DNA from: Candidatus Fermentibacteraceae bacterium | GTDB lineage: Bacteria > Fermentibacterota > Fermentibacteria > Fermentibacterales > JCC-6 | Reading direction: 5' to 3' | Assembly: GCA_029932015.1 (NCBI GenBank) | Contig: JAOZQW010000001.1 | Coordinates: 1 to 39,201, forward strand | DNA length: 39,201 bases | Shown here: in pieces, positions 31,142 to 35,278 of the stretch | Numbering within the stretch: the stretch's first letter is position 1 | Layout: each line of letters opens with the position of its first letter | Notes under the pieces: generated by a model | The model's database searches: none | What the model was told of the DNA's origin: nothing | Seen by the model: only the letters and a program-made list of their open reading frames with translations | Translations under genes and position numbers: made by a program

Positions 31142-31651
31142 GTGGACATCCTCCGGGCGGAGGCGTGCGCCAGACACTGGTTTCTTGGGATGGGAGTGCC
31201 GTGCTGGAGCGATCCTTTTCCCCCCGGAGAGGCAGGCCGATACGGACTGCTGTTCCAGGGAGCAAGAAGGGCTCTCGTCCTCCCGGAGGAGGGTCCTGCC
31301 GCTGAGTTGTCTTTCGATGGGATAATGAAGGCGAAGTGCGATTACCTTGTCTCCGTAAGACTCGATGGAGAGAGAGAAGGAATCCCAACAGGTTTCCTGT
31401 ACTGGTTCGACCTCGATGCAGAGGAAGGGATTGATCGTAATATCAGAACCTCCACCCTCCTGCTTCGCAGGATGACGGACTTCCCTGAACTCATGAATGC
31501 ACCTCAGTGTTTCAGACGAGCTTTCCTCTATGGCTCTCTCATGCTGCTTCTCAGGGGTGAGCCTGCAGTGCCCGCTATTCTGACCCGTGATTATGTTCAG
31601 ACCACTATGAAGCCGATGACTCAAGATTATTCGAAAGGACATTCCGGATGA
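31142..31651 (+). CDS. Hypothetical protein (start uncertain: GTG 31142 or ATG 31190)
   Basis: The plus-strand ORF ends in an ATGA overlap with the next plus-strand gene, and its composition is more protein-like than the antisense 187-aa ORF. The N-terminal third of the track ORF (30953-31141) was discarded as the divergent promoter region. Confidence 0.45.
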   Translation: MDILRAEACARHWFLGMGVPCWSDPFPPGEAGRYGLLFQGARRALVLPEEGPAAELSFDGIMKAKCDYLVSVRLDGEREGIPTGFLYWFDLDAEEGIDRNIRTSTLLLRRMTDFPELMNAPQCFRRAFLYGSLMLLLRGEPAVPAILTRDYVQTTMKPMTQDYSKGHSG

Positions 31652-32250
31652 AATTCAAAGCAGCAGTTCCGATCCTCCTGGTCTTCGCACTGACTCTCAC
31701 AGGCTGTCTCGGGACTTTCCAGACGGCGAGGGTAGTTCCTCTCAGGATCGGAGCGCTCTATTACGGAGCAGCGGGCACTGATGCTGACAATTCACTCGCG
31801 ATGCCGGGATTGTTCATTGAAGGCGGATGGCCGGCAGGACCGGGCAGATTCGGTATTGGCCTCAACCTCAAGCTCCTGACGGATGTTGGAAGCGGCGACA
31901 ACAACTCTTTCCTCGGAGTATGGGGAGCAAAGCTGCAGCTGCCGGAGAATCCGCTGCTGGATATAGCCGTGGGCGTTGATGTCTGGGCGTACTACCCGGG
32001 TGAACTCAAGCTATTCCTCTCGCGAAGGATTGGAATACTGGAGCCCTACGCCTGCGTAGGAGCTGCCAACTTCCTCAGGGATGACGATGATGATGACATT
32101 GATTTCTTCGGAGACGGCATATTCACTTTCACTGGTGGAACCATGGTCAGGCTAGGCTCCGATTCCGGCTGGCTCATCGGCGCTGAGGTAGAGGGTGGAT
32201 CGGCATGGAATAGCACGGGATTCGGGTTTTCCCTGCTGAAGGAATTCTAA
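31648..32250 (+). CDS. Small outer-membrane lipoprotein / beta-barrel-like protein
   Basis: Lipobox LTLTGC, Gly/aromatic-rich alternating strands, a poly-Asp loop (DDDDDDID) and a C-terminal ...SLLKEF. Confidence 0.6.
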   Translation: MKFKAAVPILLVFALTLTGCLGTFQTARVVPLRIGALYYGAAGTDADNSLAMPGLFIEGGWPAGPGRFGIGLNLKLLTDVGSGDNNSFLGVWGAKLQLPENPLLDIAVGVDVWAYYPGELKLFLSRRIGILEPYACVGAANFLRDDDDDDIDFFGDGIFTFTGGTMVRLGSDSGWLIGAEVEGGSAWNSTGFGFSLLKEF

Positions 32251-32292
32251 TCCGAACCGGAAAGCTCTTGAAGAGTCTGAGGAGTCTGAGAT

Positions 32293-32970
32293 TTGCGCGC
32301 TGAGAGATATGTAGTTCCCGGAACCATCCAGGCGAAGTCCGATGAGTGGCTTGGCCACATCAGGGGCATAGTCAGACCCAGGTCCGATCTCATCCTCAAA
32401 CCTGAAAAATGCGCCCTTCTCATCATAGACATGGTGCGCTACTTCGCTCATCCTGGTGGCAGGGGATACCTGCCCGCTTCGGATGCGGTCACTCCCAGGA
32501 TCGCGGCGCTTCTACATCTATGGAGGTCTCTTGGAGGACTGGTGATCTTCACCAGGCACTGCCACATGAATGCTGATGATCTCGGCATGCTGGGGAAGTT
32601 CTACACCGATCATATCAACTGTGACGAGAGGGATTCACACCTGATAGGGGAGCTCTCTCCCTTAAAAGATGAGAGGGTTTTCAGAAAAGATACATATGAC
32701 TCCTTTTACGGCACAGGCCTGGAGGAGTATCTCAGGGCATCCGGGATCGAGCAGGTGCTTGTCACCGGTGTACTGACGCAGCTCTGTTGTGAGACGGCGG
32801 CAAGGAGCGCATTCGTTCGCGGATTCGAAGTCTACCTGGCGGCTGACGCAATGGCCACAACGACAGAGGAGCTCCATCTCGGAAGCCTTCTCGGACTGGC
32901 CAGCGGTTTCGCAGTGATCGGGGATACCGCTGAGATACTGGAGAAGAACAGTGGCCGTCAAGATATCTGA
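32293..32970 (+). CDS. Isochorismatase-family cysteine hydrolase
   Basis: Catalytic triad context: ALLIIDMV (Asp), FRKDTYDSF (Lys), VLVTGVLTQLCCETAARSA (Cys). TTG start behind GAGGAG, spacer 8 nt. Confidence 0.8.
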   Translation: MRAERYVVPGTIQAKSDEWLGHIRGIVRPRSDLILKPEKCALLIIDMVRYFAHPGGRGYLPASDAVTPRIAALLHLWRSLGGLVIFTRHCHMNADDLGMLGKFYTDHINCDERDSHLIGELSPLKDERVFRKDTYDSFYGTGLEEYLRASGIEQVLVTGVLTQLCCETAARSAFVRGFEVYLAADAMATTTEELHLGSLLGLASGFAVIGDTAEILEKNSGRQDI

Positions 32971-33859
32971 TGTTGTTGTGGTCGGAGCGGGTCCGGGAGG
33001 CTGTGCTGCCGCCGTGCAGTGCGCCAGACTCGGCCTCGCTGTTAAGCTGTTGGACAAGACCGGCAGAGCAGGCGGACTGATAAAGGAAGCCAGGCTGATC
33101 GAGAATTGCCCTGCTCTGGCAGACCCTGTCACAGGCGAGGAATTTGCGGACAGGCTATGTACCAGTCTGGAGCGTCTCTCCATCAGTGTGATGCGGGAGT
33201 CTGTCGAGAGTGTTGAGCGCTCCGAGTCAGGATTCAGTCTGCACACATCGCATGGTCGGCATGACTGCCGGACAGTCATCCTGGCCACCGGAACGGAACC
33301 GGTGGATTTTACACTGAGCGGTGATACAGGAATCGTCCTCCGTTCCTTCCTGGATCTCCCCGGGCATCTCTCCGGCATGAGCATAGCGGTCATAGGCGGC
33401 GGTGAGGCAGCGCTCGATTATGCCCTCCACGCCGCCGATCTGGGCGCAAACGTCAGTCTTCTGATCAGAGGTAATTCCCCGAGAGCTACAGGCACGCTTC
33501 TGGAGGCCGTCCTTGTCCGTGATGAGATACGACTGATGTACGATACGGACCCGATGTCACTCGTCCGTGAGGGGAGCCGGACTTTCCTGCAGATCCGATC
33601 AAATGGAATCTCGACCAGATTAAGTGTTGATGCCGTACTCGCCGCAGTGGGGAGGAGAGCAGTGCTGCCTGAGCTTCCGGAATTATGCGAAGACCTTTCA
33701 AGTGCTATAATCACTGCTTCCCCGGCACCAGGTATTTTCATATGCGGAGACGCACTGCTTGGAAGCCTGGGTCAGGCCGGTACGGCAATTGGTCAGGGAC
33801 TTCAGGCGGCGATGGGCTGTATGAGATACCTTTGTGATGGAGCAGGAGGAGACCCATGA
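32951..33859 (+). CDS. Thioredoxin-reductase-like FAD/NAD(P) oxidoreductase lacking the redox-active CxxC
   Basis: DVVVVGAGPGGCAAA (FAD GxGxxG) and IAVIGGGEAALDYA (second Rossmann fold). LRSFLDLPG occupies the position where TrxB has CATCDG. GTG start, 20-nt overlap with the upstream gene. Confidence 0.75.
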   Translation: MAVKISDVVVVGAGPGGCAAAVQCARLGLAVKLLDKTGRAGGLIKEARLIENCPALADPVTGEEFADRLCTSLERLSISVMRESVESVERSESGFSLHTSHGRHDCRTVILATGTEPVDFTLSGDTGIVLRSFLDLPGHLSGMSIAVIGGGEAALDYALHAADLGANVSLLIRGNSPRATGTLLEAVLVRDEIRLMYDTDPMSLVREGSRTFLQIRSNGISTRLSVDAVLAAVGRRAVLPELPELCEDLSSAIITASPAPGIFICGDALLGSLGQAGTAIGQGLQAAMGCMRYLCDGAGGDP

Positions 33860-34779
33860 GGGTCGTGGCAAGCACCGGCGAGTCGGATCTGGCCACCGTA
33901 TATGTCGGCGAGCTTGACGATGGAGAGCGGATCGAATTCGTCGAGTCTGTCCAGCCGCCCGTGCCCAGGGAGCAGAAGTGGGTGCTGATAGTCTCCACGC
34001 TGAGGGGCTGCCCTGTAAACTGCCCCATCTGCGATGCCGGCGTCCGCTTCGGGGGCAGGCTTACTGCTGATGAGATCCTCTGGCAGATCGACTACATGGT
34101 GCGCCTGAGATTTCCCACAGCAAATGTCTCTGTACCAAAGTTCAAGATCCAATTCGCCAGAATGGGTGATCCGGCATTCAATCAGGCCGTACTGGATGTG
34201 CTGGAGAGCCTGCCACTCATTTATCCCGAGGCGCCTGGTCTGCTGCCGAGTATCTCTACAATTGCTCCCACCGGGACAGATGAATTCTTCGAAAGGCTTC
34301 CAGATATTAAAGAAAGACTGTTCCCTGACGGTCGCTTCCAGATGCAGTTCTCCCTGCATACATCTGACGAATCCAGAAGATTCGAGCTCATCCCGGCAAA
34401 GACATGGTCCTTCAGCCGGATGGCCGAATGGGGAACCTCCTTCCATCACCGGAATGACAGGAAAGTCTCACTGAACTTCGCCCCGGTAGAGGGATTTCCT
34501 CTGGATGCAGGTTCCATCGCGAGTATCTTCAGTCCGGAGCACTTCATGGTAAAGCTGACCCCGGTCAATCCGACATTTGAATCTTCGAGACGCGGTATGC
34601 ATGGTGTAATAGATCCGGATAGGCCGGAAACTGCTTCTATGCTGGTCTCGGCCTTCAGAAAATTCGGTTTCGACACTCTCCTGAGCATAGGCGAGACAAG
34701 GGAGAATCTGATCGGCTCGAACTGCGGTATGTACGTTGGCAGGATGAAGGAGAAAGAAGAAGAAGAAGAAGAAGAGTAG
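33856..34779 (+). CDS. Radical SAM enzyme of the RlmN/Cfr superfamily, truncated/divergent, with poly-Glu tail
   Basis: CPVNCPICD (CxxxCxxC). Collinear RlmN-like blocks are present: DGERIEFV, FARMGDPAFN, SISTIAP, QFSLHTSDESRR, VKLTPVNP and IGSNCGMY. ATGA overlap with the upstream gene. Confidence 0.75.
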   Translation: MRVVASTGESDLATVYVGELDDGERIEFVESVQPPVPREQKWVLIVSTLRGCPVNCPICDAGVRFGGRLTADEILWQIDYMVRLRFPTANVSVPKFKIQFARMGDPAFNQAVLDVLESLPLIYPEAPGLLPSISTIAPTGTDEFFERLPDIKERLFPDGRFQMQFSLHTSDESRRFELIPAKTWSFSRMAEWGTSFHHRNDRKVSLNFAPVEGFPLDAGSIASIFSPEHFMVKLTPVNPTFESSRRGMHGVIDPDRPETASMLVSAFRKFGFDTLLSIGETRENLIGSNCGMYVGRMKEKEEEEEEE

Positions 34780-34783
34780 CTTC

Positions 34784-35278
34784 TCAGTTCCCTGTTACGG
34801 CCGCTCCAGAACCCAGCAGGACCTCCTCCGGGGGTGAGAGAACGGCGAATGCCCTCTCCTGGGTAAATATGCTGCTCAAAATCCACCAGTACGGGTTCTG
34901 CGGAACGAAACTGAACAGATGCTGCTCAGGTCCTGACCAGCCGTCGATGCACCACACATAGCACCCGCTGTTCTGGAAAGGTCCCCAGGCCTCGGTGTCT
35001 ATGCCGGCATCCCACAGCATAAGGAGTTCATACCTCTGCGGCATCCTCCAATCACCCTCAAGTGCATCTATCCACTGGTTCGCGGAGAGCCAGTCCGTAT
35101 CTATGTCAGGTCCAACGCGCCATTTCAGATCTGATTCTGTATCGGTTATCACGGAATCCTCTGAAACGGAGAATCGCTCGTCTATTAGGACAGGATCACC
35201 CCATCCGAGAAAGAACGAAACGAGAAGAAGAACTGTGAACAACGGGACTACCCTCACTGAGCTCGAGCTGACCATCAC
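34784..35278 (-). CDS. DUF1566 (Lcl C-terminal domain)-like secreted/anchored protein
   Basis: N-terminal hydrophobic anchor. WLSANQWIDALEGDWRMPQRYELLMLW...YVWC resembles the DUF1566 signature. The start is GTG 35278 or ATG 35275 and overlaps the ABC gene stop. Confidence 0.6.
   Translation of the reverse strand: MMVSSSSVRVVPLFTVLLLVSFFLGWGDPVLIDERFSVSEDSVITDTESDLKWRVGPDIDTDWLSANQWIDALEGDWRMPQRYELLMLWDAGIDTEAWGPFQNSGCYVWCIDGWSGPEQHLFSFVPQNPYWWILSSIFTQERAFAVLSPPEEVLLGSGAAVTGN

Follow-up and report, generated by a model that had tools for sequence, protein, structure and literature searches.

A syntenic trio of cysteine hydrolase, flavoprotein and RlmN-like radical SAM genes in a Fermentibacteraceae genome

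Introduction

The stretch of DNA considered here, called the window below, comprises 39,201 nucleotides of a Candidatus Fermentibacteraceae bacterium (assembly GCA_029932015.1, contig JAOZQW010000001.1, positions 1 to 39,201), and it carries three consecutive plus-strand genes (positions 32293-34779) for a cysteine hydrolase of the isochorismatase family, a flavoprotein with the fold of thioredoxin reductase (TrxR) and a radical S-adenosylmethionine (SAM) enzyme, hereafter rSAM, which resembles RlmN. These three genes stand together in genomes of many phyla, and their proteins are fused to each other in every pairwise combination. We give about an even chance to the reading that they encode the three enzymes of an accessory module, which form a single complex and act on a small soluble compound, not on rRNA. 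What makes the trio puzzling is the radical SAM protein itself. RlmN and Cfr are class A radical SAM methyl synthases acting on A2503 of 23S rRNA and on A37 of tRNA. To our knowledge, class A radical SAM methylases are known only from these two, which act on RNA and require two cysteines, and rSAM keeps only one of the two.

Three genes conserved as a unit

More than 5000 homologues of rSAM were found, nearly all of them in metagenome-assembled genomes (MAGs). A scan of one genome per species gave 351 loci, and 80 of them were kept for neighbourhood analysis; neighbours were called by tblastn with the window proteins, and only loci with enough upstream DNA were counted. Loci, proteins and genomes are labelled L###, P#### and G###, respectively. 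The 80 loci come from Aegiribacteria/Fermentibacteria, Krumholzibacteria, Eisenbacteria, Gemmatimonadota, Myxococcota, Chloroflexota, Cloacimonadota, a genome labelled Cyanobacteria, Kapabacteria, Phycisphaerales and archaea of Thermoplasmatota. Immediately 5′ of the rSAM gene stands the flavoprotein gene (70/73 loci), which in turn is directly preceded by the hydrolase gene in 56/68; the two junctions are overlapping in 41/68 and 41/53 loci, respectively. Such synteny, seen in 56-70 of about 70 loci across phyla, is far beyond chance. Even when the hydrolase gene is not adjacent it is mostly not lost: five of the seven genomes checked have a full-length orthologue elsewhere (200-234 bits, with generic isochorismatase paralogues at 110 bits or less), and a sixth has a contig-end fragment. 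Clustering of 975 open reading frames (ORFs) by blastp revealed no conserved fourth gene.

The conserved unit is therefore made of the last three genes of a five-gene array in the window, not of all five. An initial annotation of the window, made from the sequence alone, had proposed that the whole array is a modification cassette, and had put forward the co-occurrence of the trio in other genomes as a point to check. The proposal holds for the hydrolase, the flavoprotein and rSAM, which are syntenic in other genomes and across phyla, and it fails for the two leading genes, of which the first belongs to the backbone and the second is specific to a lineage. The same annotation knew of no described pathway with such a composition, and we likewise found no publication on the trio.

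The trio is an accessory module with a patchy distribution. Of 70 species genomes in the window's phylum, 53 have a member of the rSAM family (34/46 when only high-quality genomes are counted), and the family is missing from one whole genus (0/8) and from several other genera, and in a sample of one Chloroflexota class the trio was found in 1/301 genomes. The rSAM family amounts to about 150 clusters at 50% identity and is strongly conserved, its bacterial and archaeal members being more than 50% identical. A plasmid search gave no match for the family, a search of IMG/VR gave no family member, the only phage homologues found being distant ones, and PADLOC gave no hit for anti-phage defence. 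It was also observed that a gene related to aminoimidazole ribonucleotide (AIR) synthase, HypE/ThiL-like, lies divergently upstream of the flavoprotein-rSAM pair in five loci only (L021, L022, L043, L047 and L052), which are related to each other and have no adjacent hydrolase gene; an example is L022:5816-6871 on the minus strand, with 88 bits to HypE, below the cut-off.

How tightly do the three proteins belong together? All three pairwise fusions of them occur in nature. The flavoprotein is fused to rSAM in L045, in P0122-P0125 and in L093, where a separate hydrolase gene lies upstream. The hydrolase is fused to the flavoprotein in P0126-P0128, and in L092 such a fusion gene is followed by a gene whose rSAM product shares 57% identity with that of the window. 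Finally, rSAM is fused to the hydrolase in five clusters at 50% identity. Since every pair is found fused, we regard the fusions as strong evidence that the trio proteins act as one physical unit.

A radical SAM enzyme with one of the two cysteines of RlmN

The rSAM protein has no match in Pfam. Its scores with the NCBIfam models of RlmN/Cfr are 26-29 bits overall against cut-offs of 290-550, such as 27.1 bits to TIGR00048 (cut-off 290) and 28.6 bits to NF000424 (cut-off 530), whereas a true rlmN on another contig of the same genome (L081) reaches 348 bits to TIGR00048. A profile search of PDB sequences with rSAM finds RlmN/Cfr only. An AlphaFold2 model (predicted local distance difference test, pLDDT, 92.9; predicted template modelling score, pTM, 0.91) gives it the partial triosephosphate isomerase (TIM)-barrel fold of the RlmN type: the top ten Foldseek matches of the model in the PDB (E from 9e-16 to 1e-10, TM from 0.60 to 0.72) are without exception RlmN/Cfr, and the next folds, SuiB and spore photoproduct lyase, follow at 1e-5.

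In addition to this fold (E 9e-16, TM 0.72), rSAM has in common with RlmN and Cfr (TIGR00048, NF000424; PDB 3rfa, 5hr6, 6fz6, 9p0p) the Cx3Cx2C motif, the SAM-binding motifs MG[DE]P, xSTxxP/G, S[LI]H and NP, and a C-terminal cysteine in CG(M/Q). The cluster ligands C52, C56 and C59 of the Cx3Cx2C motif and C290 are the sole invariant cysteines in 81 sequences. C290 lies in SNCGM and aligns with the cysteine in AACGQL of the genome's own RlmN, which corresponds to the methyl-carrying C355 of E. coli, and by this position it might be methylated as C355 of RlmN is. The second cysteine of RlmN, the resolving one (C118 of E. coli, seven residues before the cluster motif), has no counterpart: Ile45 occupies its position, and in the 42 members of the family and superfamily inspected the residue is Ile, Val or Met. 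The C118A variant of RlmN reportedly remains covalently cross-linked to its RNA. Therefore, an enzyme without C118 would need another route to finish the reaction, or would carry out different chemistry.

Other differences from RlmN and Cfr are not small, either. The N-terminal RNA-binding domain of about 70 residues is absent, as rSAM begins in the alignment at about position 70-77 of RlmN. The protein is acidic: its isoelectric point (pI) is 5.0 and the family median is 5.7, in comparison with 9.5 for the genome's own RlmN. Its score is far below the family cut-offs, and its genomic partners, to which it is sometimes fused, are a flavoprotein and a hydrolase. Given these features, and the true rlmN that the genome has as well, rSAM does not qualify as a housekeeping RlmN, in agreement with the initial view that the genes do not serve ribosome maintenance. 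Two peculiarities of the window's rSAM gene may be mentioned separately. The protein ends in KEKEEEEEEE (window 34750-34779), encoded by a GAA run and found in no aligned homologue, so that this tail is specific to the genome, and the stop codon is 4 nt from a convergent Lcl_C-like gene.

The flavoprotein

The flavoprotein matches PF07992 at 4e-25 and TIGR01292, the family of low-molecular-weight thioredoxin reductases, with 128 bits against a cut-off of 343. It shares with the latter the two-Rossmann TrxR fold, the GxGxxG motif for FAD, ENYPG, the GGGxxA motif for NAD(P)H and a conserved arginine, and its invariant or nearly invariant motifs are G12xG14xxG17, GGL..ENYPG, G149xG151xxA (GGGEAA.DYA), R173 and G266-D267. 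What it does not share are the cysteines: in 69 flavoprotein sequences no cysteine is conserved at the place of CxxC, where the window protein has RSFLD. Because neither CxxC nor any conserved cysteine is present, the flavoprotein is not a disulfide reductase, and its genomic partner is rSAM instead of thioredoxin or ferredoxin. The lack of CxxC would fit the TrxR-type ferredoxin/flavodoxin-NADP+ reductases, yet the sequence match to them is weaker than that to thioredoxin reductases; the best PDB matches are all thioredoxin reductases (93 bits), and the solved TrxR-type ferredoxin-NADP+ reductases score 40-46 bits.

The hydrolase

The hydrolase covers the full length of PF00857 (7e-41, 140.6 bits, cut-off 27) and has the Asp-Lys-Cys triad of isochorismatase-like cysteine hydrolases, D46/K132/C165, which is invariant in 56 family members. 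Its best PDB profile matches are EntB (2fq1, 139 bits) and, with 133 bits, the uncharacterised cysteine hydrolase 3irv; it keeps the nucleophilic cysteine, unlike EntB, and has the motif CCETT in common with 3irv. It stays far below every NCBIfam equivalog cut-off, as for BiuH (69/370 bits, score/cut-off), RutB (52/378), YcaC (25/310) and PncA (16/174). The family calls of the initial annotation thus stand for all three proteins, with matches to PF00857 and to PF07992/TIGR01292 and weak matches of rSAM to RlmN/Cfr.

It is to be noted that a second cysteine, C166, sits beside the catalytic C165 and is kept in 91% of the members. Could this pair be the target of rSAM? If the substrate were a protein or peptide instead of a free metabolite, the Cys165-Cys166 pair of the hydrolase or some other side chain might be modified within the complex, which the coupling implied by the fusions would allow, and the invariance of Cys165 and the conservation of Cys166 would agree with it. 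However, the surroundings of the trio contain neither a conserved precursor-peptide gene nor a conserved protein partner, and the CC-E-T-T motif is found also in 3irv, a stand-alone cysteine hydrolase. We regard a protein or peptide substrate as quite improbable.

How might the three enzymes work together?

In the reading to which we give an even chance, a turnover of the complex would start with reduction of the flavin adenine dinucleotide (FAD) of the flavoprotein by reduced nicotinamide adenine dinucleotide (phosphate), NAD(P)H. With rSAM bound, its [4Fe-4S] cluster would then receive electrons straight from the flavoprotein, a step that is suggested by the fusions only. On the rSAM protein, a 5′-deoxyadenosyl radical together with Cys290 would modify an sp2 carbon of an N-heterocyclic, nucleobase-like compound, and Cys290 might either carry an S-methyl group, like its counterpart in RlmN, or donate a hydrogen atom. 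As no second cysteine is available, the flavoprotein would probably also give two electrons or a hydride to finish the turnover. For the cysteine hydrolase, the predicted step is cleavage of a C-N bond, amide or ureido, in the substrate or the product.

A more detailed scheme can be drawn by analogy, although we think it rather unlikely to be right as a whole. In this scheme, which would make the trio a mechanistically new class of radical SAM system, S-methyl-Cys290 of the RlmN-fold protein would donate a methylene or methyl group, and an sp2 carbon of a free heterocycle resembling a nucleobase would receive it. The bound flavoprotein without CxxC would both prime the cluster with electrons from NAD(P)H and give a hydride in place of the resolving cysteine, in the way ThyX or TrmFO reduce an exocyclic methylene; the hydrolase would add or remove an amide on that molecule.

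Several points weigh against a complex acting on a small nucleobase-like molecule. Every mechanistic step above is inferred. It could be the substrate itself, instead of the cluster, on which the flavoprotein acts, and the role of Cys290 may be unrelated to methyl transfer. The profile of the hydrolase is nearest to EntB-type isochorismatases, not to nucleobase amidases. The neighbourhoods give little help: among 202 flanking ORFs from 60 diverse loci, tallied by Pfam, no family is present in more than nine loci, and the family that reaches nine is an assortment of other radical SAM enzymes, including MtaB twice and RlmN once. Those few neighbours leave some probability to a tRNA A37-type substrate: a gene for an MtaB-type methylthiotransferase lies directly upstream of the trio in two Myxococcota loci (L061:4038-5309 and L075:5051-6343), and a true RlmN gene is convergent with a family member in one Pseudomonadota MAG (L073:4662-5687). 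Lastly, the relatives described in the next section, found in QueT and phage contexts, belong to a different, distant subfamily, and what they indicate may not transfer to the trio.

Is rSAM, then, still an RNA-modifying enzyme? It might act, for example, on adenine C2 of tRNA position 37 or on another base of rRNA or tRNA, with the flavoprotein and the hydrolase in place of the N-terminal domain and the resolving cysteine. That sequence and fold match RlmN/Cfr only, that the methyl-carrier cysteine is invariant, and that MtaB or RlmN genes stand beside some loci are all in accordance with this idea. On the other hand, the MtaB and RlmN neighbours concern 3 of about 60 loci only, there is no obvious RNA role for a cysteine amidohydrolase, the distribution is patchy and accessory, and the score of about 27 bits is to be set against a cut-off of 290. 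Because the family is acidic (median pI 5.7 vs 9.5 for RlmN), the RNA-binding N-domain is missing and a true rlmN is present in the genome, an RNA substrate is argued against, and we hold it to be improbable.

Relatives in the wider superfamily

Hints on the kind of substrate were found among more distant relatives. When 1.84 billion representatives were searched in full, 157 clusters had E <= 1e-30, and the number rose to 611 with the limit set at E <= 1e-10. The distant relatives score 137-155 bits with the family profile, as against 37-65 bits with RlmN, and have no cysteine at the position of C118. In three of them, P0232, P0253 (L094:6001-8445, a Bacilli MAG) and P0266 (L100:3423-5885), a QueT-like membrane domain precedes a short radical SAM domain of the RlmN-like kind in a single polypeptide, and two of the three end in a 5′-methylthioadenosine/S-adenosylhomocysteine (MTA/SAH) nucleosidase domain (224 bits, over the cut-off). 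From this domain composition, the QueT-like fusions may be one-protein salvage systems for a base like a queuosine precursor. Identity of these QueT-fused relatives with queuine lyase (QueL) was considered and is not established, and no link is claimed; in Table S6 of PMC11130926, QueL of C. difficile (Q186P0) is listed under IPR006638, a different InterPro entry.

Short RlmN-like radical SAM genes are also carried by phages. On one phage-like contig, such a gene of 335 codons (L095:6001-7008) is placed in a 7-deazaguanine cluster with QueF, QueC, PTPS/QueD, a formyltransferase, dCTP deaminase and dUTPase as neighbours, and no canonical QueE was seen in the 13 kb read at this locus. On another phage-like contig, a related gene (L096:7001-8041) lies between a NAMPT gene and NUDIX and NAD kinase genes, and these neighbours form a phage NAD-salvage module. 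GenBank phages have homologues at 26-30% identity (phrog_24834), to which the window protein scores 70 bits, more than to RlmN. They resemble the window's rSAM in the truncated RlmN-like architecture and differ in that the phage genes stand alone, without a flavoprotein or a hydrolase. Two phage genes deserve a remark of their own. The N-terminally truncated RlmN-like gp133 of Salmonella phage Arash (L087:5923-6852) keeps both RlmN cysteines. In the gene of Moorella phage MTATph1 (L086:5836-6798), which adjoins a thymidylate synthase gene and is annotated as two ORFs, the first cysteine is missing. Taken together, the contexts in the superfamily point to nucleobase-like or cofactor-like small molecules, and for the trio this is only a hint.

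Gene content of trio-bearing genomes

Does the trio fill a gap in a known pathway? Two such possibilities were confronted with gene content. A substitute for thymidylate synthase is ruled out, as 36/43 trio-bearing genomes encode ThyX and two of the others a clear ThyA. As an observation apart from this, ThyX takes the form of a tandem double-domain ORF (two Thy1 domains in open frames of about 360-540 residues) in most trio-bearing genomes, including the window's genome (G000:C378:2604-3644) and most of G001-G038.

The other possibility is that the trio provides an oxygen-independent route to p-aminobenzoate (pABA) or to another co-substrate of dihydropteroate synthase (DHPS, FolP). At first sight the numbers look favorable: FolP is found in 41/43 trio-bearing genomes and a TrpE/PabB-family gene in 12/43, one of them over the PabB cut-off, in comparison with a TrpE/PabB-family gene in 180/301 genomes of the trio-less class sample (Fisher p = 1e-4). 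However, 86% of that class sample have no clear PabB and the trio is in 1/301. In the window's phylum, FolP is present in 67/70 genomes and PabB-family genes in 3/53 trio-positive and 2/17 trio-negative genomes (p = 0.59), and each of the eight genomes in the trio-less genus has FolP but lacks PabB. There are also no folate genes among the 202 neighbouring ORFs. Since the pattern of FolP without PabB is the same with or without the trio in the phylum, the pABA lead is not supported, and we consider it very improbable. As a side observation, only 5/70 genomes of the phylum have a TrpE/PabB-family gene, none over the PabB cut-off, a pattern that bears on the source of pABA and of tryptophan in this phylum.

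The gene array in the window and its variable slot

The trio genes and their neighbours in the window are listed in Table 1. As described in the initial annotation, five plus-strand ORFs run in the same direction, and from hyp1 to rSAM the first and the last of their four junctions are ATGA overlaps, the second is a 42-nt gap and the third a 20-nt overlap, as borne out by the ORF list and the sequence. The sequence just before the GTG start of hyp1 is GGAAGGGGGA. A scan for promoter and terminator consensus inside the array found none, an absence that is uninformative.

Table 1. Genes of the array and the convergent gene next to it; positions are those of the window
Feature	Position	Strand	Description
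hyp1	31142..31651	+	hypothetical, 169 aa from GTG 31142; ORF open from 30953
Lipobox protein	31648..32250	+	200 aa, signal peptide, LTG|C
Isochorismatase-family cysteine hydrolase	32293..32970	+	225 aa, TTG start, PF00857
TrxR-fold FAD/NAD(P)H flavoprotein without CxxC	32951..33859	+	302 aa, PF07992
RlmN-fold radical SAM (rSAM) enzyme, minimal	33856..34779	+	307 aa
Lcl_C-like exported protein	34784..35278	-	PF07603 at 6e-5, below cut-off; convergent with rSAM gene

The two leading genes have different histories from the trio. The hyp1 protein has no match in Pfam, NCBIfam or PADLOC. The lipobox protein, or lipoprotein, ends in a phenylalanine, and AlphaFold2 models it poorly, with a pLDDT of 57 that does not allow a fold search, but as all-beta with about ten strands; from this it is probably a small all-beta outer-membrane protein. 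In the 80 loci, the lipoprotein gene was found in 12, hyp1 in 9, the Lcl_C-like gene in 18 and a gene for an ATP-binding cassette (ABC) exporter in 20, all of them in the window's lineage. The lipoprotein accompanies the trio only in the Aegiribacteria/Fermentibacteria lineage and is absent in 68/80 loci and in every other phylum. Linkage to the glycine-cleavage operon is limited by lineage as well: it is seen only in Fermentibacteria-type loci and in L084/L085, with a weak gcvT-like match in L072.

The array was also compared with trio-less relatives. Such relatives were found through the orthologue of the ABC exporter, and the flanks of four regions were compared. All four keep gcvPB-PA-H-T and hyp1 on one side and the ABC exporter on the other side. 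In L090, hyp1 (859-1266) abuts the end of the exporter gene (847) with nothing between. The slot of L088 (13266-18303) is filled with a PAS-GGDEF gene, an unknown gene and a gene for a metallo-beta-lactamase fold, and that of L089 (884-5074) with TIR, FGE-sulfatase and TPR-S genes, which have a defence-like look. The lipoprotein and the Lcl_C-like gene are absent from the trio-less (empty) sites. Because hyp1 is kept beside gcvT in the trio-less relatives and abuts the exporter in L090, it is a backbone gene. The slot between hyp1 with the glycine-cleavage operon and the ABC exporter behaves as a hot spot for accessory genes. Its cargo differs between genomes, one of the alternatives being the set of lipoprotein, trio and Lcl_C-like gene found in the window.

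It might still be argued that all five genes are one operon-level system with a step at the outer membrane, as their junctions in the window are tight and the same gene order is found in L042. However, in some relatives hyp1 is separated from the lipoprotein or hydrolase gene by gaps of about 2-3 kb, and neither leading gene follows the trio through the 80 loci; we give this possibility hardly any credence. The outer-membrane component that the initial annotation had assigned to the two leading genes is accordingly not retained, since hyp1 stays by gcvT without the trio and the lipoprotein is confined to the 12 loci of the lineage.

Concluding remarks

Beyond the core description of the trio, the analysis adds the comparison of the slot, the rSAM-hydrolase fusion, the unlinked hydrolase orthologues, the two negative phyletic tests, and the QueT-fused and phage-borne relatives. 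The family of rSAM keeps one of the two cysteines of RlmN while it is associated with a flavoprotein and a hydrolase. How does such an enzyme complete its reaction, and on what? To solve it would show either a new way by which a radical methyl transfer is completed, or a new radical reaction on a small metabolite. The fusion proteins that nature has already made are ready-made constructs for biochemistry and structures, and the answer would also annotate a gene set that is present in hundreds of uncultivated anaerobes.

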